A stretch of 62,013 nt of DNA, filler included, from Hausera hauseri (GCA_046269625.1; 10 parts of 10 records of this genome joined end to end with filler, not necessarily neighbours in it), one strand, 5' to 3'; numbered from the whole stretch's first letter, positions 1-37,547 are shown. The notes: a model not told the origin generated them from the letters alone. A program made the numbers and translations.

Positions 1-2
1 AA

Positions 3-2480
3 TGTCTTATTGGCTGATTGGTGCCCTCCAAGTAATCCATCGTGATATTGAGTTAACAGCACTGCTCTATTTTTCTTGGGAATTACTAATGCAGGTCCGT
101 TTTGACTAATAAAGTACAGAAATCCTTCCTTCTCCTCGTACGCTTCGCTAAAGTGAGCCAGATGACGGGTTAACTCTTTGTCAACGGGCACGGTTTTATC
201 TTTTATGTATTTCCTAATGGCTCTTATTTCTTCATCTTCATTTTGATTTGCTTTAATCTTCTCAACTGATCCATCCATACTCCATACAGCTGCGACTACT
301 GCCTTGGTTTCTGTTTTGTCAGGTAGTCTCGACAAGTAATCGGCATTAGCATTTCGCATGCCAGGCTTGTACTGAAAATTCAAGGTATATAGTTGCAACT
401 TTAAAGCCCATCGTAGTAATCTGCTATTTGGATTTTCATGTTGTTTTAGCCATTGCAGTGGTCTATGGTCCGTATAAATTACGAGCGGTTTGTTCTCACT
501 AATATACGGTGAAAATACTTCCAAGGCGAATATCACTGCTAATAATTCCTTTTCTATTACAGCGTATTTCTTTTGATGCTTATTAAGTTTCCGTGAAGCG
601 TAAGCTATAGGGTGTTCCTTCCCATCTTCGCCCTTTTGTGACAGTACTGCTCCTATTCCATAATCACTTGCATCCGTTGCCAAGATAAATGGTTTGGTCA
701 TATCTGGATAGACTAATATAGGAGCCGTTAATAATTTATCTTTTAAATATTCGAAAGTTTTCTGACATTCGTTTGTCCAAATGACCTTATCTAAATCTTC
801 GCGTAGTAACTCGTATAGAGGTCTCGCAATTCTACTAAAGTCCTTTATAAATCTTCGGTAATAGTTCGCTAATCCTAGAAACTGACGTAATTCTCTAACT
901 GTACCTGGCTTAGGGAAATCCTTTATTTTTCCTAAGAGCTTGTCTTGAGGTTTTACACCATGTCTATCTACCTTATGCCCGAGAAAATCTACCTCTGCTT
1001 GTGCAAACGAACATTTCTTGGGGTTTATCTTTAAGCCCATTATTTCACATCTATCAAAGAGATCCTGCAAATCCTTTAAATGTTGTCGAAAGTCTGATGA
1101 CGGAATTATTACGTCGTCTATATATACCATAGCATGTGTGGCGTCTAACAGCAGGAGCTCTGTTCCTCTTTGGAACGTTGGAGGTCCATTCTTCAGTCCA
1201 AAGGGTATCCTATTGAACTCCCATAATCCTTCTCCGATTGAGAAGGCTGTCTTCGGCTTATCTTCTTCTTTTACCTCCACTTGCCAATAACCCTTTTGCA
1301 GATCAATAGTTGTAAATATAGTTGATCTATGTAGTTTGTCTAGTATCTCGTCGATTCTCGGTAATGGGTATGTGTCTGTTTCCGTTATTTCATTCAGGGC
1401 CCTGTAGTCTATGCAAAATCTCATACTTCCATCTTTCTTTTTAACCATTACTACCGGCGCTGTCCATGGTGAGCAGCTTGGTCGAATTATCTTATTTTCT
1501 CTCATCTCCTTTATTATTTTGCGAGCTTCCTGCTTCTTGTCATATGCCAGTCGGTATGGTCTCTTCTTAATTGGTTTATCTTGTCCATCCTTCAACTTAA
1601 TAACATGCTGTATTACTTTCATGGTACCGAGATCATAGTCGGTTTGTGCAAATCGACTGGCATTCTTTTCTAATAATTTAACTAACATTTCCTTTTCTTC
1701 CTTACTTAGAATTTCACATTTTTCTAACCTTTCGTTCCAATCAATATTCGTGGTTTTATTTCTTTTGTCTTCGTCTGGTTTCTTTTTCAACTTTTTTGTC
1801 ATCATCTTTTCTATTTTATCCACGTCTGATATTACTGAGTAGGTTCCTTCTTTTATTATTTCTTCCGTTGTGATTACCTTTCCTAATCTAGTATCTTTTC
1901 GTAACCGTTTTTCTTTATTTGTCGTGTTGCAACTACGTAAATGGATTTTCCAATCTCTTACTTTATCTACGTGAGGGGCAATTAGGACTTCATACTTTTC
2001 CGTGACTTGTGGGAATGGTTTGAAATAGATAATCTCCGGTTGTGTTAGACTTTGTATTGTTCCGGGGACTATTATTTCGGATCGTGGTAGGATCGTAATA
2101 TCCTTTATTAATGAGACCATTCCTTCGTTACGGTCTTCGTTGAACGTCTTCAGTTGACATGTTTTCATGTCGATATATGCGCCCTTTAACTGGTTCAATA
2201 CGTCGCATCCGATTAGGGTTTCGTTAGTCAAATTATCAGCTATTCTTATGGTGTGCTTGACGATCTGTTCACCAATCTTAATTTTTGCATCCAGGACCAT
2301 TTTAATTTCTTCATCTGTGCCAAATGCTCCTACATTCACTAATGTAGTCGTCGGCCTTCGCAATTTTCTTTTTAATTCTTTAGGCAATTGGCTCCTTCCC
2401 ATTATCGTCGTTGTGGACCCAGTATCTAGCAGGGCCATCATGGGGTACCCATTTACCTCTATTTCTATTTCAGGCCTTAC
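3..2480 (-). other. pol: Pol region of the polyprotein: aspartic protease (~2190-2480), RT (~870-1570), RNase H (~310-700), integrase zinc-binding start (<110)
   Basis: DTG and LIGCD protease motifs, YIDD, TDAS/EKELLA/TDHRPL/ADYLSR, and HDGLLGGH. The PR-RT-RH-IN order is Ty3/gypsy. Confidence 0.95.
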
Positions 2481-5400
2481 CGGTGTTTGTCGTTCGTCTT
2501 TTTCATCGACGATGTATGTGGGTTCACGTTTATAAGGAACTATATTTTCATCAAGATCTTGCCTCATCTGTTGTACTTGTTGCATAGGGTATAATCCTGT
2601 ATGCACCACATATCGAGGTGCCGAAGGACTTATTAACGGTTGTTCATTATACATTTGCCCATGATACTCGTCCGCAGGAGCTAACTGAGGCAGGTCAGTT
2701 ATTAACCTTTGTCTGTACTTAGGCTTTCGTGTCTTTAACATTAAATTTTTAATACTAGGTACTCGTTTCTTTACTTTCACTTGATTATATTCCACATCAT
2801 TATCATTGGGTATACTATACAGGGATTCTTTCATGTCTCTCCTTTTTAGTATTTTCCTCTTCCATTGTGCGTCGTGGTTCGCTAAGAAACAACTTGCCAC
2901 CGCCGGTATTACCGCTATTAGAATCTTCCATGAGCATCCTACTGCTGCATGAATTCCGTAGGCTTTACCTAGTGCCGTAAATACTGTGCGTATCGCACTA
3001 ATGATAAAATATATCGCTAGAAAACCGGAGGCTGCTTGACCAAAATATAAGAACTTTCCCCACATCTTCTCCATTACATTTTTCGTTACTTTCTTTAAAT
3101 AATCTTTACCCATCAGGTTTTCCCATTGTGGTGATCCTTCGCCGTCCCACATTACTTTCCTCGTTAATTCGGTTATGACCCTCTGCCGTTGTTGGGGAAA
3201 CAATAACATACGTCGGTAATCTTCTAGATTTTGTTGGGTATAAATTCCCCCTTGCGATATTCCAGTCAATGGTTCAAATTTCTGATTTCTTTGTAAATTA
3301 ATTAAACTTAACATCTCTGGTTTAGTTACCGGCTCTCTTTTGGGCATTCTAATCCATTTATCGTTATCGATCTTGAACATTGGTGACATGTTGAAGGTGC
3401 AATTATATAATGGAGTAGGTTTCACGTTAATCTCTAACAATATTCTAGTTACTGGCATAACATATCTCGGTTCGGTATGGTAAATCACAGGCAATTCCAT
3501 CGTACATTCTTCTGTGGGTCTAATTGACACTTCTACTTTTTTACATTCTATTGTTATTAATACTTCACCCATTATTCTGCCTATAACTCCATCACCGAAA
3601 GGCATCACTGGCGCCACCATATCTGGATTTGTTATCACTAGTGCCATTTTATTACGCATTATTTCGTAATTTAACTTACACTCGTTCATTATTATCTCAC
3701 GATATAAACTTCTAATTTCTTTCCTTACGTAATTGATCAGAAAGTCAATCTTGTTATCGAAGTACTGCGTTAACTTTACATCTTTCTTATCGATTTTAGT
3801 TTTGGCACCGGGTATTTCTTTTCTTGATAAGAAAATACCCTTGTAATTCGTTTTCGTTACTTCTTCATTACATTTAGTTGCTACTCCCATGATCTTAAAT
3901 CGCATCATATCTTCCGGATTTTCTGAGTATACAATTGTAGCTACTTCCGTCATCTTGACTTCCTTCGTTCCTTCTTTGTACGTCGCTGTCTCTTTTTCTG
4001 CTGATTTTCCTACAGTTTTATTAAATTTTCCTTCCTTTAACAACGTTAATTGACATTTACTTGCTATGGTTTCCCATGTCATTTTTGACTCCCCAGTGTC
4101 ACATTCTCCGTTATCGTACTCGCACTCACTCATAGTTGTCATCAATTTTGTTTGCGAGTCGAACAACACTTCATATTCCTTTAACTGAATCTGGTAATCT
4201 TCGATAGCTACCGTTCTAGGCGCAATAGTGCCTCCTACGTCATAATCCACTCCTTTACACGAACCTTCTGCCGTTTTATCTATTCTTCCTGCCCGGTATA
4301 TTCTGGTATATTTAATTCGATTTCGTACTGCCGGTATGTGCGCGTTTTGGATCGTAATAATACCAATCTTAAAAGCGTCTTGGCACTCGGCTCGTGATAT
4401 AATAATTGGTTCAAAAGGTGTCGTAGGCTCAATTATAGCTGAATTTCCAGAATAGTAAGCACAATTGAACAGAAAGAAGGACCTCTTTACATAACATTCT
4501 CTGACCTTTGCTTTTATAAACTCCGACTCTTGATATACCCAGTATGTGAGACCACTTGTCGTTGTGAGTTGTTCCGGATCAGCTTCTGGGCATTTCTCCA
4601 GGTCTACTAGAGAGTACTTTTGACCTTCACTAGGTTTAGAGCAATCGTAGGCTACTATACCTACTGCCTTTGGCATAAGCAGTGACGTTATTAACAAAAT
4701 TTGGATAATTTCCATCATCGTCATGCCTGTCATACCTGCTCTAGTGGCGCCTGGTTGTGTCGGGACTGGCGTCTCTATTAACCTTTCTCGTTCTCCAGGT
4801 CGTATTACGTTAGTCATCAAACTGCTTAGCCATCCACCTCTACATTGAGCCCAATTACCTAACGTATCTTTCAAAATTTTTACGGCTGTTCGTATATTCC
4901 GTTCTATTTCTTCTAAGTTTTGCGTTTGATGATTTATTACTATTATTTTATATAACAGATACGATATCGCCGTTCGAGCTTTCTCGCGTGTAATTCCGGT
5001 TGCGAACATTTTCTCTAAGATATCCATCTCGTGCAGTTCATTTATTCGTTCTTCCTCTAAGTTTTCATAGAACTGCCGACTTATTCGTAACATATGATTG
5101 TGTAACGTTGTAAATAATTCATCTGGTATCATTGTCTGCATATCAAACGAGGCGAATGATGTATGTAGTCTAGCCAGTAATGTTCTCAATAATGGGTCTA
5201 TGTCCACCGATTCCGGGGTACCATCTGTTCCTGCCAATAATAATCGTCTTACTATTTCTTCGTTTCTATCCTTTCTATTACGTATATCACTTATTTTCGT
5301 TCCTTTTGGCCGGCCTTTTCTCTTAGCTTCTGTTTGAACTGTGACATCCTGAGTGTCAACCATAGGATTCCCTACTTCCTGTGGTTCTAGTTCCCTTAGA

Positions 5401-6125
5401 ATATTTTCTACTGTTGCCTGAGCTCTAGCCTCTGGGTGTATTTCGGTTATCGTTATTGGGTTGTAGTTTTCACTTCTACATCCAATTCTCAATAATGTAT
5501 CGTAGTTATATAACGTCCTTCCACCATAATTTAATCCGTAGGGGCTTCCTTGATAGAAAGGCTCCACTTCCTCTATCTTCCCCCTTAGACTTTGTATATC
5601 GTCTGCTTCGTTCATCCTTATAACCCTTAGGTCATGATTTCCTTCCCTTATTGTTATCCGTATAACTTCATTTCTCCCTTTTTCGTCCTCAGCAGCTTTG
5701 GCTAATACCGTCCTGGCTATTTCTCTAACAGGACTGGTATCTTGGGATAATAGCACCAATTGACGTAGGATCTCATTCATCCTCTCTGGCGTTATCTTGT
5801 TGGTTAGTATCTTCAATATCGTAGTAATCGTTTTATCTACATCAATTATATTATCGGGATCAACCGTCAACACTGCCTGAATGATGTCTTCTTCTTCGTC
5901 TAAATCTACACCTGGATTCCTTATTACCTGGTCCAATATAGTATCATCAAATAATGGCGTGGATTGTGTTTCTTCTGGACTGAATGAGGGTGAAGGTGTA
6001 CTAATATTACTCTTCTTTCTTCCTCTTTTCTTTTCTTTCACTATGTCTCCCCTCTCTGTTGACGTTTCTCTTGATTCTACTTCTTCTTCAACTATTTTCT
6101 TATTGCCTTTCTTTCTTCCTTTACG
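3..6125 (-). CDS. Ty3/gypsy polyprotein, partial at both ends: UBL - AT-hook - signal peptide - class III envelope glycoprotein - TM - PR - RT - RNase H - integrase N-terminus
   Basis: Hand translation finds no stop over 2041 codons. Motifs all in one frame: KRKGRPKG, IVAYDC (4641-4658), FGQAASGFLAIY, ALLDTGS (D at 2424), RFCIDYRALN, PFGLKN, MVYIDD (1113-1130), TDASDYGIGAVL, NANADYLSRLP, HDGLLGGH. Confidence 0.93.
2880..4733 (-). other. env: Envelope glycoprotein domain (chuvirus-G/gB-like class III fusogen) inside the polyprotein
   Basis: Signal MMEIIQILLITSLLMPKAVG|IVAYDC. Cys-rich ectodomain with CYVKRSFFLFNCAYYSG, a central helix YFDNKIDFL...LYREIIMNECKL, GEVLITIECK..CTMELPV..PVTRIL, and GGIYTQQNLEDYRRMLLFPQQR. 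C-terminal hydrophobic segments at about 2880-3040. Confidence 0.85.
5439..5666 (-). other. Ubiquitin-like domain within the polyprotein, no terminal GG
   Basis: 76 codons VIRITIREGNHDLRVIRMNEADDIQSLRGKIEE...YGLNYGGRTLYNYDTLLRIGC...ITITEI. Matches the ubiquitin pattern (DTIENVKAKI; LIFAGKQL; TLSDYNI). Confidence 0.75.
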
Positions 6126-6126
6126 T

Positions 6127-6226: not shown

Positions 6227-8220
6227 ATCCCATGACTAATCTCCGAACCACTTTGTTTGTTTCCTTCCCTGAAGGGAGGGTTGCAGAGAACATAGGGCAG
6301 CTATAGAAGTAACAATGAAATTCATACACAAACCACAAGAGTAGATGACCGGAACAGATCAAAACTGCCATACTGAGTTAACAAAAATAAGAAACGACCA
6401 TCATCTTAGCTTTGGGGAAGCTAGATTTGTAAAGGAATTGCTCGACGCGATAGATCCTGACTCAAAAATCCTAAACGAAATGTACAAGGTAACATTACTA
6501 TTGGTAGAAATGGCAGAAATTAGTGATGAGAAGATGAGACAGTTGATGCCTCAAATACGACAGGCTGAAGAAACGTGCATTAGAATCAAAAAAGAGCAAT
6601 AAGGTTAGACGAACTAACCAAAGAACTGGACATTAATAGAAATAAATATGCATTTACTGAGTCAGGACTTAACTGAAAGACAGAATTCGTACAGAGGTGG
6701 CAAAGAGATGTAATAGTCGAACTGACTGATTATCATCAAAATGAACTCATTCATTCTGATAAACTAGGCAAACTATTGAAAATGATCCAGTATGTCTGTG
6801 AAAACGGAACAGGCTTCCAAACTACAAATGAAAGAAATACAACCAAGATTGAAAGAAATTCGATAGAACGTGCAAAGAACAAATACGGCACTAGTAGACT
6901 ATGGACTTCCGGAAGTTGGAAACAAACCAGAATGGGATGCGTACTTAGATGCTATAACTACAGAAAGTCCGATGACTCCGGTGCAACTAAACGAAACAAA
7001 AATGTATACACAGAACAGGAGATTCAATGTGAAAATGCTACTGGACTCAGCTCTAACTGAAAAAGATTTGATCGATCTAATTAAAGAAATATCTTTGAAA
7101 ATAGATTAAGACAACTTATTCCGACTCTAAATAAATTATCTAGTGAGAACACAATTTATAGCGCGGTGCCGAAACTTTTAATAAAAAATATGCTAAAATA
7201 ATAAGGGCTAAACCTGAGGTAATAATGAAAGTAACAGTATCATCCAAGTGTATGGATGAAAAGGAGTGTGTGTTATCTACATATTCCTATGTGAGGGATG
7301 TAAGAGAATGGTTAACAAATAATGGTGGAACAAATGAACTAAACTATAGATTCTACTTTAGAGGTAGAATACTGGACGATTTAAAACAGTTAATAGACGC
7401 TGGTATTATATCCGACAAAACAAACCGAATAATAGTAATAGTAGCTAATGAGCAAATTTAAGAAGAAGCCACGCGTAAAGCTAAGACAGAACAATGCGTA
7501 GGACAAATCATAGGAGCCCGAGACGCTGCAATGTATTTCGAGTATTTGCAAACGGATGAAGATAAGGAACAATATGATAAGAATTTAATGCCACAAAGGG
7601 GAATGATAACAACTGCCCAAAAACAGAAACGCCCGGTCGGTAGACCCAAGAAGACACGAGAAGAAGTTGACTATAACCGAAAATTGATTAGAAAATTGAG
7701 ACAGATGTCAGTTCCTACCTTAAGCGTAGACAACGAAGAATTAAGCGAGTTAATGGCGAATTTAATAGGCATCGTAAATTATTTAAGCCTCCATGGTGAC
7801 GTATTAGATGAAAAAGAGAAAGCGATATTTAACGCAGATCGAGTGGTGAGAAATTCTCGTTTTAAATTGTCAAAAAATATCCTAACAGACAAAATGGTGA
7901 TCGAAAAGATCATGGCGGAAAACACCATAGAGGAACTAAGAGGAAGTTAGCTACCAAAATAAATCATAGTCGAGAAAATGAGCTATAAGCTTAGCATAAA
8001 GACCGGCTAGAAAATTGCCTTGCGAAGTAAACTGGTCGAGGTTATTCGATAAGGATGAAGACAAACGATGTAGTAATAAATAATAGACCCAAAGATACGT
8101 TACATAATCTGACGAAAACGGACAATAGCAATCGGAGCAACGAATCTAATTGGCTAATCAGCTTGCTCACATTGATGATGTCAGTAAAACAGGTAGGTGC
8201 AATCACAGTTTATGACTGCG
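6227..8220 (+). pseudogene. Decayed fragment of the env-in-polyprotein family: linker, UBL (7225-7450), AT-hook (~7620-7650), signal + ITVYDC, truncated at ~8220
   Basis: ORF 7225 ...YRFYFRGRILDDLKQLIDAGI is UBL-like. ORF 7531 has KQKRPVGRPKK. WLISLLTLMMSVKQVGAITVYDC at 8150-8219. Alignable at DNA level to 25560-27500 (-). Confidence 0.8.
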
Positions 8221-10650: not shown

Positions 10651-10735
10651 AGAAAGGGTTAATCTTACAACAAAGTATGGTCTTGAAGTAAAATCAATTC
10701 TTTGTCTGATGATAGAATAACCCGCTCTGTATTTG

Positions 10736-13972: not shown

Positions 13973-16900
13973 GACCACACCATGGGAGACTACAACATGG
14001 AAGACCACACCATGAAGTACCGCACCATTGAATATCAGGCCAGGAAAGGCCACACCAGGAGAGATTGCACCATGGAAGAACACACAGTGGTAGAATACAC
14101 CATGGAAGAACACACCATGGAAGACCACACCATGGAAGACCACAGTTTGGAAAAACACACCATGAAAGACCACACCATGGAAGAGAACTCCATGTAAGAA
14201 AACACCATGGAAGACCACACGATGGAAGACTACACGATGAAAGACCACAAAATGAAAGACCGCACCATGAAAGATTACACAATGAAAAATTACACCATTG
14301 AAGAGCACAGTATGAAAGAAGACGCCATGGAATACCAAACCATGGAAGACCACAGCACGGAAGACCACACCTTGAAAAACCAAACCATGGAAGACCACAC
14401 CATGGAAGACCACACCGTGGAAGACTACATCTAGGAAGACCACGCCATGGAAGACCACACAATAAAGACCACACCATGGAAGACAACACCATAGAAGACC
14501 ACACCATGAAAGACCACACCATGGAGGACCATACCATGGAAGACCACACCGTGGAAGAACACACACAATGAATACCACACCATGAAAGGCCACAGAATGG
14601 AGGACAATATCATGAAAACCAACATAATGAAAGACCACACCATGGAACACCACACCATGAAAGACCACACCTTGGAAGACCACATGTAAAAGACCACACA
14701 CAATGAATACCACAACATGAAAGACCACACTAAGGAGGACCATATCATGAAAACCAACATAATGAAAGACTACACCATGGACGACCACACCATGAAAGAC
14801 CACACCATGGAAGAAAACACCATGGAAGACAACAAGATGGAACACTACACGATGAAAGACCACACCATGAAACACCACACGATGAAAGATTACACAATGA
14901 AAAACCACATCATCGAACACCACAGTATGAATGAACACGATATGGAATACCAAACCATGGAAGACCACGTTATGAAAGACCACACCATGTAAGACCACAC
15001 CATGGAACACTACGTCATGAAAGACCACACCATGGAACACCACTCCATGGAAAACCATAACTTGTAAAACAAAACCATGGAAGACAACACCATGGAAGAC
15101 CACACCGCGAAAGACCACATCTAGGAAGACCACACCATGGAAGACCACGCCATGAAAGACCACACCATGGAAGACCACACCATGGGAGACTACAACATGA
15201 AAGACCACACCATGAAGTACCGCACCATTGAATATCAGGCCAGGAAAGGACACACCAGGAGAAATTGCACCATGGAAGAACACACAGTGGTAGAATACAC
15301 CATGCAAGAACACACCATGCAAGACCACACCATGGAAGACCACACCATGGAAGAGAACACCATGTAAAAAAACACCATGGAAGACAACAAGATGGAAGAC
15401 TACACGATGAAAGACCAAACCATGGAAGGCAATACCATGGAAGACCACATCATGGAAGACCACTCCATGGAAGACCACACCTTGAAAAACCAAACCATGG
15501 AAGACCACACCATGAAAGACCACACCGTGCAAGACCACATCTAGGAAGACCACACTATGGAAGATCACGCCATGAAAGACCACACCGTGGAAGACCAAAC
15601 CATGGGACACCACGCCATGAAAGACCACATGATGGAAGACCACTCCATGGAAGACCACACCGTGGAAGACCACATCTAAGAAGACCACACTATGGAAGAT
15701 CACGCAATGAAAGATTACACCATGGAAGACCAAACCATGGAAGACCACGCCTTGAAAGACCAGATGATGTAAGACCACGTCACGAAAGACCACACCATGT
15801 AAGACCACACCATGGAACAGCACGCCATGAAAGACCACACCATGGAACACCACTCCATGGAAGACCACACCGTAGAAGACCACATCTAGGAAGACGGCAC
15901 CATGGAAGACCACACCATGGGCGACCACACCATGGAAGATCACTCCATGGAAGACCACACCGTAGAAGACCACATCTAGAAAGAACGCACCATGGAAGAC
16001 CACTCAATGCAAGACCACACCGTAGAAGACCACATCTAGGAAGACGGCACCATGAAAGAACACACTAAGGAAGACCACACCATGGAGGACCACATCATGA
16101 AAGATTATACCATGAAAGACCACATAATAATAGACCACACCATGGAAGAACACACGATGGAAAACCACACCATTGAAGATCACACCATGAAAGACCACAC
16201 CACGGAGGAACATATCGTGAAAACCAATATAATGAAAGACCACACCGTGGAAGGCCACATCATGAAAGACCACACAATTGTAGACCACACAATGGAAGAC
16301 CACACCATGGAAGACCACGCCATGAAAAACCACATCATGGAAGAAAACACCATGGAAGACCACAAGATGGAAGACTACACGATGAAAGACCACACCATGG
16401 AAGGCCACACGTTGAAAGACCACACCACAAAGTATTACACCATGAAAGGCGGCACCATGGAAGAACACACCATGGAAGACCACACCATGGAAGATCACAC
16501 TATGGAAGACCACACCATGAAAGTTTACACCGGGCAAGAGCACACCATGGAGGACCACATCATGAAAACCAAAATAATGAAAGAACACACCAGGAATGTC
16601 CATGCCATGAAGACCACACAATCTTAGAACACACAATTGAAGACCAAAGCACAAAAGACAACACCTTGGACGATTGCAACAAGGAGTACCACAGCACGAA
16701 AGACCACACTATGGAAGACCACACCATGAAAGTTTACACCATGAAAGACCACACCATGAAAGACCACACCATAAATGATTATACCATAGAAAAACACAAC
16801 ACGAAAGACCACACCATGGAACACCACACCATGGAACACCACACCATGGAACACCACACGATGGAATATCACACCATGAAAGATTACACTATGAAAGACC

Positions 16901-18363
16901 ACACCATCGAAGACCACAGCGTGAAAGATCACACCATGGAATACCCAACCATGGAAGACCACACCAGGGAAGACCACAGCACGGAACACCACACCATGAG
17001 AAATACACCATGGAAAACCACACCATGGAAGACCACACCATAAAACATGACACCATGAAAGACCACGCCATAATAGACCACACGTTGAATGACCACACCA
17101 TGAAAGATTACATCGTGAAAGTCCACACCATGGAGGACCACACCATGGAAGACCACACACCGTGAAAGACCACGCCTAGGAACACCACAACATAGAAGAT
17201 GACATCGTGAAAGACAACACCATGGAGGAACATATCATGAAAGATTATACCATGAAAGACCACACAATGGTAAACCACACCATGGAAAAACACACCGTTG
17301 AAGACCACACCATAGAAGACCACACCATGAAAGATTACTTCGTGAAAGACCACACCATGGAGGATCATATCATGAAAGTTTACACCATGAAAGACCACAC
17401 AATGGTAGACTACACCATGGAAGAACACACCATTGAAGACCACACCATGGAAGACCACTACATGAAAGATTACACCATGGAAGATTACACCGTGAAAGAC
17501 CACACCATGGAAGACAACACGATTGAAAACTACGCGACGAAAGACCACACCATGAAAGACCACATCATGAAAGATTACACAATGAAAGATTACACAATGA
17601 AAAACCACACCATCGAAGACCACAGTATAAAATACCACGCCATGGAAGACCACACCATGGTAGACCACCCAATGGAAGATTACACCATAAAAGAAAACAC
17701 GATGAAAGATCATACAATAGAAGACCGCACCTCCGAAGACCACACCTTGCGCGACTGCAACAAGGAGAACCACACCATGGAAGATTACACCATGAAAGAT
17801 TACACCATCGAAAACCACAGCATGAAAGCCCACGCCACGGAATACCAAACCATGGAAGACGACACCGTGAAAGATCACACGATGAAAGATTACACCATGG
17901 CAAAACACAACGCGAAAGACCACACCATGGAACACCACACCATGAAACACCACACAATGGGAGACCACAACATGGAAGACCACACAATGAAGTACCACAC
18001 CATTCAATATCAGGCCACGAAAGGCCACACCATTAAAGATTACACCATGGAAGTCCACACAATGGTAGACCAAACCATGGAAGTCCACAACATTAAAGAC
18101 TACACCATGGGGGACCACACTATGGAAAACCACACACCGTGAAAGACCACACCATGAAAGACCACATCATGAAAACCAACATAATAAAAGAACACACGGG
18201 GAAAATCCATACCATGGAAGACCACACAATGGTAGAACACACCATGGAAGACCACACCATGAAAGATTACATCGTGAAAGACTACGCCATGGAGGACCAT
18301 ATCATGAACGATTACACCATGAAAAACCACACAATGGTAGACCACACCATGGAAGACCACACC
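13973..18363. repeat. 15-bp minisatellite (consensus CCATGGAAGACCACA), ~4.4 kb, fills the whole contig
   Basis: Direct tandem repeat visible throughout. Translates as MEDHT / HGRPH / VVFHG / CGLPW. Higher-order duplication at 1200-bp offset (13981 vs 15181). Confidence 0.97.
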
Positions 18364-22619: not shown

Positions 22620-22912
22620 ACATATGATGGATTTTGAAAAGGACGCTTACGCGGAAGCATATGTTCAGTCAAAAATACAATATCTCGGATTTTAAAATAA
22701 ATATCGTAACAACGGTACAATGATAGAAGATTTTAAAGAGAAATATCCGTTTTCACCTTTGTGTCAGCTGCAGCATACTCAACTTCTGAAAACCGGTAAT
22801 CTCAAATTGGATTTTCGTTTCCACAAGAGTTGGCTGAAACCTTCATCATGTGTGTATACGGTATATTAGATTCAACGGTGGAAATTACCAAGATTGATCA
22901 AATTTTTGCATA
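22620..22912 (+). pseudogene. Polinton major capsid protein C-terminal remnant
   Basis: MDFEKDAYAEAYV..LGF..RNNG..IEDFKEKYPF..HTQLLKTGNLKLDFRF..LAETFIMCVYGILDSTVEITK matches the Polinton MCP C-terminal pattern. Confidence 0.7.
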
Positions 22913-22919
22913 AAGAAGA

Positions 22920-25900
22920 ATATTTATAATCAACTTTACATAAAGTAAGTACTTCCGGATTCAATTTGTACATTGATTTCAACATCTGGCCAAAGGCCCT
23001 TGTACTTTCGGGGTCTCTTGTTAATGGTGGATACGACTGTACTTTTAGCGCTTGTGGAATTGAATCATTTTTGATATAAGATATCTCGAAGCCTGTGTCA
23101 ATTAGGGCGTAAACTTCCCAGTCTTTATTAGTGACTTTGGAGAATGGCCTGCCTTCTATTACTGTTCCGAAACAATTTGACGCGGCTTATGGCCGTTTAA
23201 TCGTTGATATTTTGTGGACATTTATTTTGATTTCTGGGGAGGACACTACATTTTCAGATATTTGTCTTAGATCTCCATTTGGGTATAATTCATTGATTTA
23301 CATGTTCGACTCATCTTTTCCATGAGTACTGATTAGTGGTTCACGGTTGTTCGTATGTGGCTCTATAATTCGAAAAGTTTGAATCCTTTGATTTCCCCAG
23401 ACGGTTAGTCTGGTTTCTATATTCCGGGGTTATTTTGGAGAGTATAACATTCAATGATCATCCACCGACTGTCAGTAGAGGGCGTCGAATTAGCCCTATT
23501 CTCGTGCATTTTTCGTAAGACTCCATATTGCTTTGTTCCTTCATAAGGGTCTTCTAGACTAAATGATTTTTTATAAATTTCTGTTTGATACGAAACCATT
23601 GATCGTTTATTACAGACTTCGTAGACTTGTGCAGTTGGCGGCAACATGAGCAACTGTGCTTTTACAATGGAATACGTCTTACGTCTACTTACTTTAGGGA
23701 GGGCTTCTCCTACCTTAGGTTCGTCATCATCTAAACTTTTCTTTTGAATTTTGGGTTTTAAAACTTTCTCCTGCAAAAGAATATAGTCTTTCTTCTTTGT
23801 TTGCGATTATGGTAGCCGACATGACACTCTACGTCTGTTTTCCAATTGCTGTCTTCATAATCCTTTAGAAATTTTCCGAACGGTGTTATAATTGTAGTTA
23901 AAATTTAACATTAAAATCCAGTTAACATAAATAATTCGTACCCATTTATTACTGCCTTTATCGAGATTTTGATTAACTTCATTAAGATATATATCGCCAA
24001 AAATCCAGATGCGGCTTGTCCAAAAATTAAAAATTTTCCCAATATTTTATATTGTATCTCTGTGGTCATCAGTTGGTAATCGTCTGCAGCGAGAAAGGAT
24101 TCCCATTTAGCTTGGTATCGAGTATTGTCTACTACTGATTCCATGGTTCGATTTAATTCGTGTGTTCGTTGTCGCGAAAAAGCGAGAAATTGTCTAAAGG
24201 CTTCGATTTTCTTTCGTCGGTATATATCTTTCGATGAGGTATCATGGAATTTGTTATCCGTCATTCATCTTACAAGATCGGTTTCCGTTAACTTAATCAA
24301 GGCGGCGGTAATGCCGCCATTGGACAAACTTGCCCAATCCGTTTCGCTACGTCTAAACATTGGTTCGCCTAAACTTGCTTTACATTTTTTCAGGATCGTT
24401 GGCTAAGTTGCATTATTTAACAGTACTCTAGTAGGATACATAATCCACCGAGAAATATTCTGATATATAACCGGATGTTCTTGTATACATCGATTTTCTT
24501 CAACATTGATTGACTTCGTCGGTAACTCGACCGAAATTTCCTTCTCTCATTGGGATTAATGCTGATAATTCAGGATTGATATAAGAGCCCATTTTGTTCT
24601 CATGATTTCTATACCTAATTGACAATCGTTCGTTATCATCTAGTGGTATATTTTGCCTATTCCGACTTGTCCTTTGTAGCAGAAATAATCATCTCGATTT
24701 TTCAAATAATCTTCAATTCGGATGTCCTGCGTTTGTAAATTGTACATTCTCGCACTTATTTCGGTATCTGTGACAAAAAATGCTTCATAATTAGTGGAAA
24801 ACGTCACTACTTCGCAACGGGAGATCATTTCCTTTTTATTAAATTTTAATCCATGAGGGTCAGAGATTAATATAGTTGGCGTAGAGTGCTCCGCTACGTC
24901 TTCGCGTGTCCTTGTGTTGGTGTCAAATTTATTCACATATCGCTTACCGGTAGTCTCGTTGAATTTCAATTCCTTAATTTTGATAAAATTACAAGGTCTT
25001 CAAGAGGGAGGTTCCCATATTATAACTGAACTTCTGAAAGCACACGTTCCATCCTGTAGACGACATCTTTGATTTTCGGTGTATACTTTGGTGATACTAT
25101 GAAACATCAACTTCTGCGCTCGCATTTCTGATTCATAGAAATCTACATCCATTACGTTTGTTTCTATTCCTTTACCGGTGTCGTACTGTGCTCCATTAGT
25201 TTCCATTGTGCATATCTAGTCTTCCTACCACTACATTATATGCTCTAATTTTTTTCCTTGTTACATTTCAAGTTCCATCCCATCCCATTGTAGTCTTCCT
25301 TTTTCCCTAGCCTGCTTACAATGTTATCTTAAATTTATTGGAATTAAGGGCGTCGTTGGTTTGATTATCGTATGTTAATCCACAGTGGAAAATACTACGA
25401 GATCGTCGCAACATACATTCCATTCCATCCAGTGATATTAACTCTTGATGCTGATATAAGAAGTAACTTTTCTCTTTTGTCTCCAGCTTATGCGGTCTAG
25501 CGTCTTGTCAGGCTTCTAAGTCCATTAAGGAATATTTCTGTCCAAGTTTATATTTATCGCAGTCTTATACTGTGATGGCACCTATTTGTTTTACTAACAT
25601 CATCAAAGTGAGTAAGTTGATTAGCCAATTGGATTCATTTCTCCGATTGCTATTATCCGTCGTCGTCAGATTACGTAACGCATCTTCGAGTCTGTTACTA
25701 TTACTTGATCGTTTGTCTTTACCAAATAATCTTCACCAGTTTACTTCTCGAGGCAATTTCCTAGCCTCGTAGCTATTAATTTCGTTATCGACTGCTATTT
25801 GTTTGGATAGCTAACTATCGTAACACTTTTCTTAGTTGTTCTATCGTGTTTCCCACCATGGTCTTCTCGATCACAAAATCATCGGTTAGGTTACTCTTTG

Positions 25901-28900
25901 ATAATTTAAGAAGGGAATTTCTCATCATTCTAGCTGCGTTAAATATTGATTTCTCTTTTTCGTCTAATACGTCACCACGGAGGCTTGAATAATTTACGAT
26001 GCGTATTAGATTTTTCATTAACTCGCGCTAAAAGTAGGAATTGACATCTGTCTTAATTCTCTAATCAGTTCTCCGTTATAATCAACTTCTCGTATTTTTC
26101 TGGGTCTACCAACAGGGCGTTTCTGTTTCGGAACAGTTGTTATCATTTTACTCAGTGGCACTAAATTCTTATCGTATTGTTACTTGTCTTCACCCGTTTT
26201 CAAATACTGAAAATACATGGCAGCGTCTCGGACTCACATGATTTATCCTATGCTTTGTTCTGTCTTAGTCTTACGTGTGGCTTCTTTAGTCTGCTCATTT
26301 GCTACTGTTGACACTGGTTTTTCTCGTCGGGTATAATTCCAATGTCTATTAATTGTTCTAAGTCGTCCAGTATTCTACCTCTAAAATAGAATCTATAATT
26401 TAGCTAATTTGTTCCACCATTGTTTATTAACCATTCTCTTACATCCCTCACATAGGAATAAGTAGTTAACTAACATTCCTTTTCATCCATCCAGTCGGAT
26501 GATACCCTGACTTTCATCGTTACCTCAGGTTTAGTCCTTAAGATTTTAGCATATTTCTTTATCAAAAGTTTCGGCACTGCGCTATAAACTGTGTTCTTAC
26601 TAGATATTTTAATTAGAGTCGGAATAAGTTATTTTAACTTATTTCTGTAATATTTACGTTAATTAGTTTGATTAAATCTTTCTCAGTTAGCGCTGAATCC
26701 AGGAGCATCTCTACATTGGATCTCCTATTCTGTGGATACATTTCTGTTGCGTTTAGTCGTACTGGAGTTGTCTGATTTTTGGAAGTTATTGCATCTAAAT
26801 ACGCATCATATTCTGGTTCATTTCCAACTTTTGGAAGTCCATAGTCTACTAGCGCTGTATTCGATCTTTGTGCGTTCTCGCGAATTTCCTTCAATTTTGG
26901 TTGTATTTCTTTCATCTGAGTAGTTCGGAAACCTATCCCGTTTCCACAGGCATACTGGATCATTTTCAATAATTCGCCATGTTCATTAGAGTGAATAAGT
27001 CCCTTTTTATGATAATCAGTCAGTTCGATAATTACATCTCTTTGCCATCTCTGTACAAATTCTGTCTTCCTTTGAATTTCTGACTCGGTAAAGGTATATT
27101 TGTTTCTATAGATCTCGAACTCTAGTTAGTTCGTCTAACCTTATTGCTCTCTGTTTGGTTCTAATGTACGTTTCTTCGGCTTGTCGTATTTGAAGTATTA
27201 ATTGTCTCGTCTTCTCATTACTAATTTCTGCCATTTCTGTCAGTAGTAATGTTAACTCGTACATCTTGTTTAGGACTTTTTAGTCTGGATCTATCGCATC
27301 GAGCAATTTCTTTACAAACCTAGCTTCCACAAAGCTCAGGTGATGGTCGTTTCTTCTTTTTGTTGGCCCAGTATGACAATTTTAATCTGTTCCGGTCATC
27401 CATTCTTGTGATTTGTGTATGAATTTCATTGCTTCCTCTATAGCTGTTCTATGTTCTGGACAAATATCTAAAGTTTCGAGGTCCTGAATTGAAATTTCGC
27501 TAATAGGTTTAGCTGTCAATTGTTGGATTCCTTCTAAGCGGACGTTTCTTAATCTTGGATAGAAATTGCAAGTCATATTTCGCTTCTCCGTAAAACTTCT
27601 TTCTTCGATCATTTGGTATATCTCTTCCAATATAGTCATTTCTTGTTTCTTTTTCATAAAATTCAATTTTCGTAATGCGTCGAATTGAGTCCGGATATCT
27701 ATTTCCGCTCTTATTGTGTCTACGTTACGTGCACTTTCTTCTAGACGTTTATTTACTGTAATTCATCTATCTGGAAATTGTTAAACGGATTTTCACAGAT
27801 TTACTTAGTCTCGATATTAATTCGGACCATGCATCTAGCTGATTAGTTATGACTGTTTTTGCCAATATCGCCTTGTCTAGCATTTTGTAAGCATCTTTTA
27901 ATTCATCATTTGGTCCTTTTATAAAACTCAATCTGGCCGACATAATTAAATTCATCCTTATATTCGTCGAATTCCACGATACCAGCTTTTATTACGTGTT
28001 TGGTTTCTTCGTTATTCATAAACATTATTCGGTTTCTCAAGCTATAAATTTGTGATCTCTTCGTTCTCCTTTTTAATACGAGTCTCTACGTTCGTATATT
28101 GTTTATGTACGGCGAAGGCAATTTTTATCATCTCCATTAAGGAAGATATCTGCCGTGTCTATACCTAATATTTCTAAATCATTATAAATTCGATTGTTAA
28201 CCGGTTTTTCCCTAAGTCGATTAATCATTGCATATCTAATTCCATCCATAATGCACTCTATATTACGAACCACTTTTTTCAATCTAGGATTAGCTTCTAA
28301 CGTAGACAATAGTGTATCAGCTTTGGCTACTTTTACATCAACACTCTTCGTTTTTGCTCCATTCTTCCGAAAATTCGACTCCTTTTATCCATGATTCTAA
28401 TTCATGTTTCCATTTTGTCAACGTTTCAGGTGGCACTTCCTCTAGTGCCACTTCTTAGGTTGCCTAAGTCGATTGCTTCATCGAGTTTTCCTTCACTACA
28501 TAATTTCAAACTTTTATATAACCTCTCAACAAATTGCTGCTCCTTATCGGATATATCTACTTGTTTGCTAATCCGCTTAAGCTTTTCTAAATTCAGCTGC
28601 AGTATTTCTGGATCGTGGCAGTTAATTCTCAATTCTTAATTCATCGGCGTTTTTCCACGAACGTCTAACCTTCCATTTTCTCTGGTCGAAATTCTTCATG
28701 TTCCCTGTTTCTTCCTCACTAGTGGGAAGTGGGCAAATCTCATTTATTTCATTAATTAACTCTACAGATTTTTCCATCCCGATGGGTGTAAATTGACCTA
28801 TCTCTGGTGTGTTCAAGCTGGTTTCTACGTCACTTTCTACAGTAATGTTCGTATCTTTTGTTTCTACTAATTTCTCTAGTTACTTGAGATCGTGAAGGAA

Positions 28901-30686
28901 TTCTGTTATTGTTTAAGTGAAGGGCTACGGCTTCTGTGTATCGTAATTTTAAGTATTAATGGTTCCATAAATTTATCGGCTATATCGTCTTCGGTAACCT
29001 TATTTATTTTTTCGATTGTGAACTCAGGCCCTGCATCTAAGTCGACGTCTGTCGAAGTTCCTGGATTATCTGACTTATTTACTATTTTGTTAGTTGCCGG
29101 AACACTCTTCTTTTGTGTCATATCAATTCGCTTTTGCGCTATAGCATACTCGTGCTCTGTTTCCGGTTTTGCTAATCCATGATATACTTCTAGTAATCTT
29201 AGCTTATCTCCGTATTCTTTTCTGGCCATTAAAATTTGTGGATTAATAGCTTCAGCCTGAGAATCTAAAATTTTTCGTAAGTCTTGTATGTCGATAATAG
29301 TACCTATATCTCCAAGAATACCATATTTTGCTTTTAAGTTTTTATTAACTAATTATACTAGTCTTATTGGGCTCATTGAATGAAACGCTACGCGGATTTG
29401 GACATGATCTTGCAATGTGTCATTCTTTACCTCAAGTAAAACAAACTAAGTTTCCATTTCTGCCTACTCTGTCGACTGCCTTCATTTACAGGTGACTTGA
29501 ATCGGTTTGTGTTTCTATTGTACTGGTTTATCAAACTTTGTGTACTACCTATATTTCGTCGACTATCATTATTTCGATTATCATCATAACGATTTCGATA
29601 GTTAGAACCTTTATAGCTTCCTTCATTTCTATCTGTATCTGAATTAGACTTATTCAAATTTCGATCATTACCATAATTGTTATTTTGACTATCTCTGTAA
29701 TCGTTATTGCTATTTCTATTCTCATAATTGCTGTTACTGTTAAATCGTCTATTATCTCTTACGCGATTATCACCGCGATTTCTACCACTGCGATCATTTT
29801 GTTCATTATTTCTGTCATTTCTATCATTGTGTTTGGCATATTTATCAAGTGCCATCTCTAAGTCCTGGGCCAACTGCAAGGTTCTCTCGAAATTTTCAGG
29901 TCTAGCTAAAATTAACTGCTTTACTAAATCTCTGGACCAAATACCATTAATCAATTGGGTCGTAATCATGACGTCCAAATCTGGAGGGTTTGCCTTTTCC
30001 GCAGCTTCACGTTCTGCGTCTGTTTTGGCCTTTGCCACATTAGCTATTCTCAGTGTACTTACATAACTATTAGCGAGTTTCTTTAATGCAAATGCAAACT
30101 GGGTTACCGACTCCCCCTTCTGTTGTACCCTATTCTGAAATACCATAAATTTCTGTTGTAGCGTTACTGTTGGCAATAATTTACGGTTTAATGCTTCTAC
30201 CAGGGAGGACCAAGATTTCTTTTAATCATTAGTGAGCTCGCCGTAAGCGTCTGCGGCTAGATTTTTGAAATATAACAACAAACGTTTAATCATTACGTCA
30301 GGAGTAAGACTAGCACCTTCTGTGTGCAACTTATAAGTTCTCAAAAATTCGTTCAATTCGTCCGGATCACCTTAGTATGCCGGTAGATTCAGAGAATCAA
30401 AAGTGAAGTGCGCTACTGGTGGGTTATCTGCTGCCATATTATTTACGTAATCTCTAAATTTACTTTATTGTCTCTGTGAACTTTAGTTTTTACAAGAGGA
30501 ATCTTAAACTTATTAGTTCGCTGAACGGCTGTTAAATTTGGATTAACTGAGTTTACTCTTGTTTCAGAAAGTGAATGTTTATCCAAGTTTTCACTATTTC
30601 TATATGTATTTCTACGCTTCTGACGTATAGGCGAGTTTTCCTTATCGTTTAGATTAAGATTCATTTTAGACATCAATATTTCTTTA
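22920..30686 (-). mobile_element. Decayed env-in-polyprotein Ty3/gypsy element: gag (~29400-30437), ~2.9-kb linker, UBL (26300-26517), AT-hook (~26100), signal, glycoprotein (23900-25620), tail, protease (~22930-23150)
   Basis: Gag FQNRVQQKGESVTQFAFALKKLA; KQKRPVGRPRK; LLTLMMLVKQIGAITV*DC; FGQAASGFLAIY; EVYALIDTGFEISY. Many stops and frameshifts. Confidence 0.85.
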
Positions 30687-32567: not shown

Positions 32568-35500
32568 TTGGCATTGTTAATCGGTTGTATTATACTTTTT
32601 GGTTTCAGAGATAGCATTTGCGCATATATACGTTTTATGGCGCAGTTATATGCTGGATTGAATATGAGTAGATATACCGGTGAGCCGGCTGCCTTTGACG
32701 ACTTCATTACCATGTATGAAGCAAAGGCGGATAGCGTCGACTGGGATGAAAAAGCAAAAGTAAAAATATTGGTAGGGTACTTGGAAGGTGTGGCACTGCA
32801 GGAATGCCTTCAGATAGACAAGGCGAATAAGCCATGGGAGTACATAGTTGAAAGATTTCGAAAATATTTTGACCCAGACTCTTCGTCCAATGCTCGATTA
32901 AGACATTTACGATACCGTGTAGAGCATTCGGGGGAATCGGTGAATATGTTCGCTCTGGATTTACAAGCCTTAGCAAAACGATATAAGATCGAGAATAAAG
33001 ATAAAAAGGCCGACGATAAAAAAGTTTTTGAAACAGAGCCTATTCTTGTAGATTGTTTCATAACCGGTTTACGAAATCCCAAAGTACAGCGACATCTCAT
33101 CGAGAGTGAGGCCTCGACATTTAGTGAATTAGTTAAGAAGGCTATAGGTCATGAAAATTTCGATGTTAAAATGTCACAAATATTACAGAGAGGTCTATTA
33201 CATCAAGACACGTCACCGTCTATACCTCATGCACAAATTACTGAATCATCAACACTTAATATTAACCAACCAATAAGTCGTAACACATGGAACAAACAAA
33301 TGGACCTGGGAAAAGGATGGCATCAACAACAGTGGTTGCAACCACCAAGGCAGACGATGGTATATGCTAGACCTCAAGGGAATATGGGACTCGGAGTGCG
33401 TCCACATTAGTCACCAATACAACGACTCACGTCCGCAACAACTGACGTCAATATACGACAACCAGCGGGATAGAATGCTATGGCGACCGGCGCCGCAGTC
33501 AATCGATTGCAGGTCGTACCAATGAGAAGTACTGCCAAAACTATACCATATTCATTAAGATCAATGGGTAATCAAAATCAAGCAACCACAATGGAGCGCG
33601 ATATTGTTAATTTTCAAGGACTAGTGCAGTGTCACAACTGCCAAAACTTCGAACATATGGCGAAATCATGTTCATACGTGTCACAAATGCCGGCTACCAC
33701 TCCACCGTATGCACGTGTTCCAAAACAGTGCCGATCTTGTGGTCAGTGGGGACACATTGTGGTGCCCACCGCGGCCGGTGCCCTTTAGCCCATTTGGTCG
33801 GGCACGGCCGGGCGTCCGTTGCCGTCGCATCGGATCCATAGTCGGACCCGATCCTCCGCCTTGAAAATTTCAGTCTTCCGTTAGAAATATAATTATGACA
33901 CCAACTATTTCAGATCTCTGCATTATATGGTGGTTACTTGATTGACGCAACAATGGTTACGTAATTCTTACACACACTTTGTAAAACTTGCATTTGTAAG
34001 TACATTGAAAGCAACCGTTATTGTCCGCTCTGTCAGTATCTAATTCAAGAAACCCGATTGGGTAAAGGTTGTACGAAACCAGATTTAGGTTTACAAAAGG
34101 CCACTTATAAACTCGTTCCAAATCTTATGAAATCAGGAATGAATAAAATCCGCGACTTTCACTCGAACAACAATGACACTGAAAATGTTTCCACAACAGA
34201 AAAAGTTTGCCTTTTACAGTCCGATGATAAATTGCACTGGAGTTTTCGGCGACGTAATTTCGATAATTTCGAACTTTCGGTAATCGGCGCAAAGTCATTC
34301 GGTAACAAATCGGAAAAGAACTGTTCCAAACCCTTACAATCGATATTCAGTCGACTAACCGTGACATTGTCGAAAAGCAAACGCAACACTTCAAGACACA
34401 GATTGTTCCACGATTTCCGTGATTTCATCTGGTCTTCATTAATGTTTATAATTCGATTTTGAAACTTTATAAACCGTTGGATAATTCGACAGGAGAAATG
34501 AAATGCCAATTCGAAATTTAACGATTTAATTTGTCAAATTTTCTCAACATTGTCCGAGAGCAAGTAGATCTTAATAACGGTATCGACATAAAGCGAACCC
34601 CAAACATCGAAGAGCGTATTGAAATCATCAAGCGAAATAAGATCCAACGGTAAATCCGTCTGAAAAATTACGGGCACACAAAGAAAATCGACAAAGGTTG
34701 CAACTGTAATTTATCGTTAGGCGAATGGTATGAAAAACTGTTTTTCATTATTCGTTGCGACAAACGACTCACTAACAAGATCCAGTTTCAAATTTTCCTT
34801 TTGAAACGTTTGACTAATGTTCGATTTGGATTGAGTTGAAAAGAGATCTTTAAACCAAGAACTATTGATATTCGCCAGATCATTGGAACGAATCACGAGA
34901 GTTGAATCGATGGGCAATAAGTAACCGACGAGTGTTTTCGATATACCGAATCATTTCTCACACAATTTCATATCGCCGAGTTGGGAAATACCAGAACATC
35001 GTTTTGAACAAGGAGTTGAGAATTTATAACAGCAATGACATCCCGGCCAAAACCTTAGCCGGATTAATAACCAACGTTCCCATCGTAATAATGATCAGTG
35101 AATAGAATTCTAACTGTTCGAAATATTTCCCAGCAATGTTCTGTTTATACAACACCTTCGTTTCCAATAACGACGACACAATGAGGCTCTTCTCAACTAA
35201 ATTGTACAGAGTCGGTTTCAATACGGAATCCATAAAAAATTCGATTCCATGAATTGTTGTTTTATGTCACACAATTGCATATCCATCTCGTAGATACATT
35301 CACAAACGTGATACCAAACGAAAGACGACGATTGTGTTACCGTGTGCGATTATTAACGTCGCCGGATTTACCGGTCCCCTTTTATTTAGCAATCTTTGTT
35401 TCAATAATACACAGTACTACGATTTGAATTTGAATTAAAAATTGGTCATATTGAAGTTTTTAACGACTTTGATTTAAGCACCACTACTATTGGAATTAAT

Positions 35501-37547
35501 ACAAAAGAAAACTTAAGCGGAAATTATTAAAAATTTTTTCAAAAGTTTCAAAGACAAAATACAGAAACGTGTGATGGGGAGCTTACTAAACTTAGTCAGA
35601 ATCTTTGGCTGCAGTCGTTCTCGCAGGATCTATCGATTGAAATCATGTTAACTAATACACATAGCAAAAAACTGCTCCGTACATCAACAACAATGCTTAG
35701 TACAAACGACAACTCACCAACAACATCTAGTCATGTCACAGCCTAAAAAGTGTTTTAACTGTGGTCAAACGGGCCACATGGCAAAGAAATTAAATACTAA
35801 TAACATGGCAATAATGCAATCACAGTATGATGCAATCACATCTTATCCAATAAATTCAACTAATTACTACCAGATGCACGCAAATGTTGGTTCGTCTAAC
35901 CAGTTGATACGGAGTAACGCTTTTGGTTTATCACAAGGAGAACGAAACGACTCAATAATAGACTTGGTTACCTCCACAAGCCCTGGAGAAGAGATCATAA
36001 ACCCAGCTTATGATGAAACAGATGATGCGCAATTGTCTCAAGACGAAATGGTTTTGCAAATAAAACAATTAAGATTGGAACGTAATGATATGCGAACGCA
36101 ATTTGAAAGGTTAAAATCCCTTCAAAATAATCAGGTGGCCCACTGAGTAACAATCCAAACGAAATATTAATTTCTCCGGATAAGGTACAGAATAAACATA
36201 GCCCAATGATGATGCATGAAGAATACGAATTAACAACGCCATCGCCATCCATAGACGAAACTGAAGAGTGGGATAACGCAATCGAAATAAACGGCCCAGA
36301 AGATCGGTTTAGGACGTTACTAGAAACACTAGGGAATGATGCTAAAAACGAAGTATTGGCAGTTATTATGGATCAAACATATGACCTCCACGAATGGATA
36401 ACAAAGAATAAAACACGATTTATGAAAATAAGACAATTTCTAATAACTCAGGCGGCAGACGGTGCTACGCATAGAGACGTTGCAAGGTTGATATTAAAAA
36501 TATTTGCCGAGAAAGAGGGATTTACACCTCAGAGGGAAAAGGTAAGATTCTGGTGCAATGTAGGATATTTTTCGGATAAGTGTGTGAGGTGACACAGGTC
36601 ATGATAGACCCTGAGACACCAATACGAATGGTGCTAAGCAAATTATTATCAATGTGCCAAACGCGTTATAATAACGTTTACATTGTAATCACAGTAGAGT
36701 TTATGGGACAAAGAATAGATGGCATGGAAATGAAATGGATAGAGTTAGGAATCATGTCCGGAATGGATCCTAACGAAACTGTTAAAATATATCTTAAGAA
36801 ATCAAACCGGACGAGTGATGATAATCAAAAAAAATTGGAACACCAAATAAATAAGATTTTGGGAGTAACAGAATGCATTAAACCCCTTCAAGCAAGTTCA
36901 GATAATTTGATTGATCAATCTGAAGAGATAGAAATACCGGAACCGCTACGGGTATTCGCGGAAGTAGCAAATTTAAGCACCGAGGTATTATCTAAGGAGG
37001 TGATACAAAGAAAAGAAAAAGGTGCGGCAGATATCAGAAAGAAATCAAGAGGAAGACCAAAGAAGAATTTGGTGGAACAAGTTAGTATTGACACATTAAC
37101 TCATGATTACGTCAAAGCGAAACTAGAAGTTTGGACCTTTAGATTCGACAAATCAAGCCAATTCTCCACAAAATTCACCAAATTCTATATAAGAACGAAA
37201 ATAATTTTCAGTCAGAAGAACGCATACCGCAGAAGGTTGAAAACATAATATTAAAAAAGGAACTGCCAAGTTCATTTACACTGTCAGAAGATAATGACAT
37301 CATTCAAAAATGGATGAAAGTCGGCGAAATGTCAAAAAATCGCATGATTGCGATTGTAGTATATCTAGTAATGCGAGTTCGGATGTCAAGTAACACACAG
37401 GACGACTGTGAAAGTAATAATAAAATTGCGATAGAGATCGCAAAGAATAATTTATCAATGGACGTTTATCGATTCGGTAGGTGGAAGAAGGTGTTGGTCG
37501 ATCCCCCAAATATTCTTATAACGCTGGAAAGGGTTTACCGGAGATAA
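32568..37547 (+). mobile_element. gag: Decayed divergent relative: gag with three CCHC knuckles, SUMO/UBL-like domain (~36540-36800), AT-hook (~37040), helical domain; truncated before env
   Basis: YTGEPAAFDDF..WDEKAKVKILVGYLEGVAL..GESVNMFALDL; CHNC..H..C, CRSC..HIAKNC (reconstructed), CFNCGQTGH; VEFMGQRIDG..WIELGI; KKSRGRPKK. Confidence 0.72.
33758..35657. mobile_element. 1.9-kb insertion into the gag zinc knuckle, 5-bp TSD CACAT, carrying a decayed minus-strand orphan ORF
   Basis: CACAT at 33753-33757 and 35658-35662. Removing the insert restores CRSCGQWGHIAKNC in frame with ORF 35733. Ends are TGT...ATA. Confidence 0.8.

Follow-up and report, generated by a model that had tools for sequence, protein, structure and literature searches.

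A decayed retroelement in a stretch of DNA from Hausera hauseri (GCA_046269625.1) retains the order Gag, ubiquitin-like domain (UBL), envelope glycoprotein (Env) and aspartic protease. The stretch, here called the window, is 62,013 nucleotides long and consists of 10 contigs with N spacers; the element under study is contig 5 (22620-30686). Contig 5 is very probably what is left of a Ty3/gypsy retroelement, dead and truncated, with the layout Gag-insert-UBL-Env-protease; the element is likely Burro-like, from a planarian, and descended from an ancestor that likely encoded one polyprotein.

Order and parts of the element

Domain profiles were made from contig 1, which carries a related subfamily, and from intact relatives, with contig 5 left out, and the window was searched with them in all 60 frames, stops being read as X. 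These profiles were used because Pfam missed the decayed Gag and UBL of contig 5, the UBL partly owing to the choice of frame. Together with tblastn and motifs, they place on the minus strand, in this order, a Gag capsid, a CCHC knuckle, a helical domain, the UBL, a basic GRP motif, Env and the start of a protease. An earlier note on this DNA had proposed the order gag-UBL-AT-hook-env-protease, with a recognisable Gag at one end, an LIDTG protease at the other and the glycoprotein between them. This is borne out, the Gag, protease and Env profiles matching at independent E-values (iE) of 5e-28, 0.004 and 3e-77; the parts named in that note were all found, but the knuckle, the 2.75-kb insert, the helical domain and the slot of a Bcl-2-like domain had been omitted from it. 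The features of contig 5, followed by two related copies in the window, are:

As far as the contig edge (30686), minus strand: open stretch beyond Gag in another frame (six-frame reading)
29850..30437, minus strand: Gag capsid (Gag profile at 30392-29850; 2 stops; tblastn matches to many Gag proteins)
29399..29849, minus strand: N/R/D-rich Gag tail ending in a single CCHC zinc knuckle (tblastn, motif)
26650..29398, minus strand: unannotated insert of ~2.75 kb (~900 codons), apparently decayed coding sequence (stop scarcity, third-position bias)
26536..26643, minus strand: short helical domain, located ahead of the UBL in this family (profile iE 2e-4; tblastn to P0047 and P0016, E 4e-4)
26314..26520, minus strand: UBL with 2 stops (profile iE 6e-6)
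26096..26113, minus strand: putative AT-hook-like or nuclear-localisation-like basic GRP motif KRPVGRPRK (VGRPRK at 26113-26096)
25680..26090, minus strand: slot of the Bcl-2-like domain, as in relatives, frameshifted (position only)
23842..25640, minus strand: chuvirus/gB-type (class III) Env, broken (PF24664, own profile)
23130..23841, minus strand: decayed Env-protease linker (position; 1.33 stops per 60 codons in the best frame)
22915..23129, minus strand: start of a retroviral-type aspartic protease (profile, Pfam RVP, LIDTG)
22620..22914, strand unassigned: unrelated repeat truncating the element (run contigs of X3, X4 and X2)
3..6125, minus strand: contig 1, related subfamily, intact frame of 2041 codons (stop-free)
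6287..8220, plus strand: contig 2, another copy belonging to the contig-5 subfamily, reaching from the unannotated insert into the beginning of Env (1583/1882 identical)

The knuckle itself occupies 29443-29399, contains 2 stops and is matched in tblastn by the knuckles of the related proteins P0016, P0029 and P0001 (E 0.001-0.009). At the opposite end, runs X3 and X4 have contigs that cover the truncating repeat as a unit of its own (22622-22914) and whose ends hang loose at 22914, and one X2 contig (n=1) bridges the joint near 22915 without difference. Runs X1-X4 are four of the nine runs recovered with contig 1, and one of them may be the source of the DNA. Contig 5 is without reverse transcriptase (RT), RNase H, integrase or long terminal repeat (LTR); the element is cut by the other repeat at ~22915, and RT and LTR are therefore absent from the contig.

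Envelope glycoprotein and protease

The Env profile matches contig 5 in two frames, at 25624-25373 (iE 1e-20) and at 25374-23842 (iE 3e-77), with 15 stops over both pieces, and Pfam PF24664 (Monjiviricetes_fusion) matches the same Env at E 4e-19. A hydrophobic segment lies before Env and another at its C-terminal end, and the motif FGQAASGFLAIY, found at 24024-23989, is also present in contig 1 at residue 1028. The protease, weak when that of contig 5 is taken alone (Pfam RVP E 0.056), has LIDTG at 23105-23091 within a profile match at 23123-23028 (iE 0.004) and runs on in another frame to ~22915. A second protease, seen by eye at 28339-27950, was dropped for want of Pfam support.

Relatives, trees and copy number

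Contig 1 (1-6126) matches PF24664 at residues 470-1091 (E 1e-90), followed in Pfam by retropepsin, RT and RNase H; by eye, its full order is helical domain, UBL, GRP motif, Bcl-2-like domain, Env, protease, RT, RNase H and the start of integrase. As the earlier note had stated, its DNA does not align with that of contig 5 (blastn, no match at E<1e-5), the two being connected by tblastn matches at 26-39% identity. Env is 28% identical between contigs 5 and 1 over 479 unmasked positions, and 49% identical between contigs 1 and 10 over 319. The term "independent, divergent copy" used for contig 5 is apt in that it belongs to a separate subfamily, but it descends from a common ancestor and has no separate origin: an 18-row Env tree places it, on a long branch, beside contig 1, P0001 and contig 10 (support 95), and shared ancestry with these three follows from that grouping. 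The comparison of glycoprotein and RT trees proposed in the note, carried out on 8 elements, gave agreement, with 3 of 5 splits in common and a Mantel r of 0.82 (p 0.006).

A Pfam scan covered 21 of 150 proteins, and 16 intact polyproteins were mapped for domains, most of which were in the training alignments, with L001 and L002 in no profile; the P-series relatives are proteins only, without DNA context. Gag and Env share one frame in 6 of these 16 polyproteins, and the protease follows Env in 13, the remaining three ending in Env, while a UBL precedes Env in 7 and a Bcl-2-like domain does so in 6. L002 is a complete frame of 3703 aa from Gag to integrase. Both L001 and L002 have 2-3 protease domains, a long tail after integrase and, after the polyprotein, a separate exonuclease frame (PF00929; 10617-12107 in L001 and 12085-13473 in L002, E 1e-5 and 1e-3), and L002 has the helix and UBL module twice. 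A word-index search with the contig-5 Gag gave no match, and the viral contigs searched yielded no relative.

The contig-5 subfamily is a high-copy, diverged repeat, as judged by the coverage of contig 5 in runs X1-X4. In X1, 14,653 contigs map onto it, across all 30 bins, and 7,713 of them are <90% alike; the bins covered number 30 in X2, 29 in X3 and 27 in X4.

Two further contigs hold decayed members. Contig 6 (32658-37490, plus strand) has a Gag (iE 1e-31), knuckles, the helical domain, the motif SRGRPKK and a Bcl-2-like domain (iE 5e-6), and ends before Env; inside this element, between two pieces of Gag tail at ~33900-34460 (plus strand), stands part of a C3HC4 RING sequence, itself broken (Pfam E 1e-4), which presumably resembles a PCGF/Bmi1 host gene. 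Contig 10 (55535-59676, minus strand) adds a third decayed copy, close to P0001, in which Gag, helix, UBL, Bcl-2-like domain and Env are present but a long insert is not.

The unannotated insert

Stops in the best frame of the insert number 1.07 per 60 codons vs 2.83 (minimum 1.9) in 50 single-base shuffles. Contig 2 provides a second copy of 27457-25558, identical at 1583 of 1882 aligned bases, in which the mismatches with contig 5 are distributed over codon positions 1/2/3 as 81/65/129 (p 2e-6); the count covers 10 of 18 ungapped blocks, each of at least 45 bases, with frames picked by fewest stops, a mild bias. In the three blocks that lie within the insert, the distribution is 35/28/60. 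Coding constraint acted in the past across the contig-5 subfamily, and the ~2.75-kb insert looks formerly coding. No match to it was obtained by tblastn with 150 proteins, and the best E was 0.09 with 17 polyproteins; likewise, the part at 26634-27125 had no match among longer proteins in a word-index search, a weak test, nor the part at 27100-27780 among PDB sequences. In Atlas, the best score for the insert was 0.89, a lead only.

Domains upstream of Env

The UBL was compared by fold through its counterpart in contig 1, which is predicted to adopt a ubiquitin fold (Z 12.7, root-mean-square deviation 1.9, 76 aligned against ubiquitin-like chains). The model of the contig-1 cargo on which this search was made is alignment-based (15 rows) and has a predicted local distance difference test score (pLDDT) of 73, vs 39 for the single-sequence fold; its fold-search lists were filled by ubiquitin folds, and the match concerns the UBL only.

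The GRP motif was found in 7 of 17 polyproteins scanned, as well as in contigs 2, 5 and 6. The canonical AT-hook core is RGRP. Contig 5 has V before GRP, giving the core VGRP, so that the AT-hook of the earlier note stands as a basic GRP motif but departs from the canonical core.

Directly before Env, contig 1 and relatives have a domain that Pfam PF00452 matches weakly, with E between 8e-5 and 0.2 and scores short of the curated cut-off. With a 9-row profile of this domain, the best 60 of 191 PDB matches were all of the Bcl-2 family, including Bcl-xL at E 1.5e-5; the domain keeps a BH2-like W..GGW and has the NWGR stretch replaced. The Bcl-2-like profile finds the held-out L001 but not L002, and the corresponding slot in contig 2 scores 4.8 bits against a null maximum of 7.4.

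Comparison with known elements

The layout Gag, Ubi/SUMO-like domain, BCL2, in-frame env and protease is already published for planarian Burro/GYPSM1 (PMC6431247). The novelty implied by the earlier note does not hold, the order standing in section 7 of that paper and section 5 of PMC13524379, and the contig-5 subfamily is an added, divergent, dead case of a published architecture. The Burro/GYPSM1 elements of planarians are gypsy-like LTR retrotransposons of giant size (Jurka 2007 and Grohme 2018, cited through Arkhipova and Yushenova 2019, PMC6431247), whose polyprotein has Gag with CCHC knuckles, a Ubi2/SUMO-like motif, BCL2, and env in frame between BCL2 and protease; according to the same text, decayed fragments with stops and frameshifts have been reported in Dugesia japonica. 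Contig 5 resembles them in its N-terminal Gag capsid followed by CCHC, its long cargo region and a Ubi/SUMO-like domain upstream of env. In contig 1 and other relatives, the likeness extends to the BCL2-like domain directly before env, and in contig 1, P0001 and L002 to an env in frame between gag and pol, of which contig 5 shows the order. A single polyprotein cannot be demonstrated from contig 5, because stops and frame changes break the copy, but intact relatives show one. A difference is that contig 5 has a GRP motif, whereas "AT-hook" occurs 0 times in PMC6431247. Burro elements measure 25-30 kb with LTRs; contig 5 is an 8-kb contig without ends. The dUTPase-like domain of Burro (a published HHpred call) lies between protease and RT, a region missing from contig 5; in contig 1, Pfam gave no dUTPase match at E 0.01.

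A second comparison is with the GAG-ENV-POL elements with gB-type Env reported from Nematoda, Bryozoa and Platyhelminthes (Chary and Hayashi 2026, PMC13524379, available text), among them six Schmidtea mediterranea errantiviruses (Smed_errantivirus_1-6, group Platyhelminthes_C1a) of 14.5-18 kb. Contig 5 has the same order of gag, env and pol, up to the protease in which it ends, and the same gB/chuvirus class III Env as these HSV/gB-type errantiviruses; their Ty3/gypsy pol is found in contig 1 (to RNase H), L001 and L002. By eye, the Env motifs of contig 1 and relatives resemble the six Smed_errantivirus rows available (YQE motif region, cysteine pattern), and the divergence of 27-64% given there among Smed_errantivirus_1-6 is similar to the 28-49% in the env region of the relatives compared here. 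In its available part, PMC13524379 catalogues intact elements, whereas contig 5 is dead and has no pol past the protease; Bcl, ubiquitin and AT-hook have no mention in the main text as available. A literature search for an AT-hook in planarian gypsy gag/env elements with a ubiquitin-like domain returned nothing pertinent in the text accessible to it. The same glycoprotein class is also carried by an LTR retroelement in mosquito BEL/Pao elements (Dezordi 2020, PMC7642597). These belong to a different superfamily: the RT/RNase H and retropepsin matches of contig 1 are to Gypsy-type families, with no Pao match, and L001 and L002 are Gypsy-type only.

One element, joined elements or chimera

Several points weigh against contig 5 as a Burro-like Ty3/gypsy copy from a planarian. 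Its Gypsy class and size are taken from relatives, because it has neither RT nor LTR, and its membership of Burro is judged by layout; the planarian host is a probable one, inferred from the likeness of Env. It has one knuckle where Burro has two or three, and Pfam finds none of the published Burro cargo, which varies between members (MATH, Smc, BIR, ankyrin, midasin), in three frames of 26300-29450, where decay lowers sensitivity. The Bcl-2-like identity of the pre-Env domain, that of contig 1 included, is a putative one drawn from profiles, and it cannot be claimed for contig 5, because its frameshifted slot has a score of 0.6 bits, under the null maximum of 7.4 (1086 frames). Finally, when the trees of Env and Gag are compared for 7 elements, 1 split of 4 is common to both, the one that pairs contig 5 with P0001, and the trees are not significantly congruent (r 0.48, p 0.11).

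This last result also bears on the possibility, an improbable one, that the Gag half with its 2.75-kb insert and the UBL-Env-protease half are two elements joined by recombination or nesting within 26650-29400. The pairing of contig 5 with P0001 in both trees, although weakly supported, speaks for one element, as do the single strand, the even purine bias (0.60-0.63) and the scarcity of stops along the whole of contig 5, where no LTR-sized repeat occurs. The insert is without match in any relative, but large lineage-specific blocks stand at the same place in Burro (PMC6431247, available text), in P0012 and in L002; contig 2 confirms 27457-25558 only and no single run contig covers the whole stretch, but overlapping run contigs cover the insert. 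That such elements acquire foreign inserts, as contig 6 shows, is a further point in favour of joining.

Still less probable is that the assembly merged several repeat copies into a chimera. A high-copy family in a fragmented assembly could yield a mosaic of sister copies, but such a mosaic would still show the true order, which recurs in contig 10, P0001 and L002 from other assemblies or contigs, and the 3' joint is bridged by the X2 contig.

Target-site duplications or LTR remnants beside env, named in the earlier note as evidence to the contrary, were looked for, and no flanking repeats were found: contig 5 has no direct repeat of >20 bases and one 20-base pair, away from the Env ends, and the Env flanks share 0 words of at least 8 bases vs 1.4 expected, a test that a short target-site duplication could escape, and 7 six-mers vs 12.4 expected. 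Chuvirus-like glycoprotein fragments are frequent in animal genomes near Gypsy fragments (PMC10084718, available text), but the idea that Env entered an ordinary gag-pol Gypsy as a nested element of its own, or as a fragment of an endogenous chuvirus, is hardly credible and already largely refuted by these flanks, by a 5' Env junction also present in contig 2 and bridged by an X1 contig (25540-26216), and by an Env that is in frame in contig 1 and before the protease in intact relatives. The Env-containing layout is supported as a feature of the lineage, neither assembly error nor nested insertion, in agreement with the earlier note; the shared junction, the in-frame relatives and the correlation of Env with RT speak for it.

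Other contigs of the window

In contig 2, the contig-5-like copy is adjoined tail to tail at ~8220 by a different Gypsy remnant with RNase H and integrase (8230-13650, minus strand), after which comes a RING-finger frame (Pfam E 8e-7); the contig also has a 216-bp inverted duplicate at 9617-9831 and 13496-13709. Contig 3 (13973-18363) is a strand-biased tandem repeat over its whole length, with long open frames. Contigs 7 and 8 (38438-47514) have ~3.5 kb in common at 74-78% identity and no match to the 150 proteins. In contig 9 (50507-53837, minus strand), ankyrin-repeat and KH frames lie upstream of an unrelated Gypsy gag-protease-RT piece. They are likely exons of a host gene, presumably of MASK/ANKHD1 type, and a reading of them as Burro cargo was rejected for that reason.

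Proposed mechanism and significance

In an intact ancestor, judging from the anatomy and from general polyprotein topology, the ribosome would make cytosolic Gag and cargo first, after which the hydrophobic segment before Env would act as an internal signal or anchor and send the Env ectodomain into the lumen of the endoplasmic reticulum. The segment at the Env end would bring the chain back into the cytosol for the remaining parts, protease, RT, RNase H and integrase, and signal peptidase and the element's protease would separate the pieces, leading to enveloped particles that might move from one cell to another. After cleavage, the Bcl-2-like domain would remain tethered to the membrane, facing the cytosol, and may reduce cell death; such an anti-apoptotic function is a guess that fits PMC6431247. 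The UBL may have a part, together with the GRP motif, in processing and in chromatin or nuclear targeting. The contig-5 copy is no longer able to perform any of these steps.

The unannotated insert is the sole part of the element that could hold something new. It is a speculative possibility, put forward tentatively, that planarian enveloped retroelements use the slot between knuckle and UBL as a bay for exchangeable cargo, and that the ~900 codons of this high-copy subfamily were undescribed domains kept under selection, which may have manipulated host stem cells. A very divergent, high-copy, dead subfamily retains the Gag-UBL-Env-protease order, as do many relatives, and UBL, GRP motif and Bcl-2-like domain come and go among them. 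This speaks for the presence in planarians of an old and diverse group of enveloped retroelements with virus-like cargo predicted to modulate the host.

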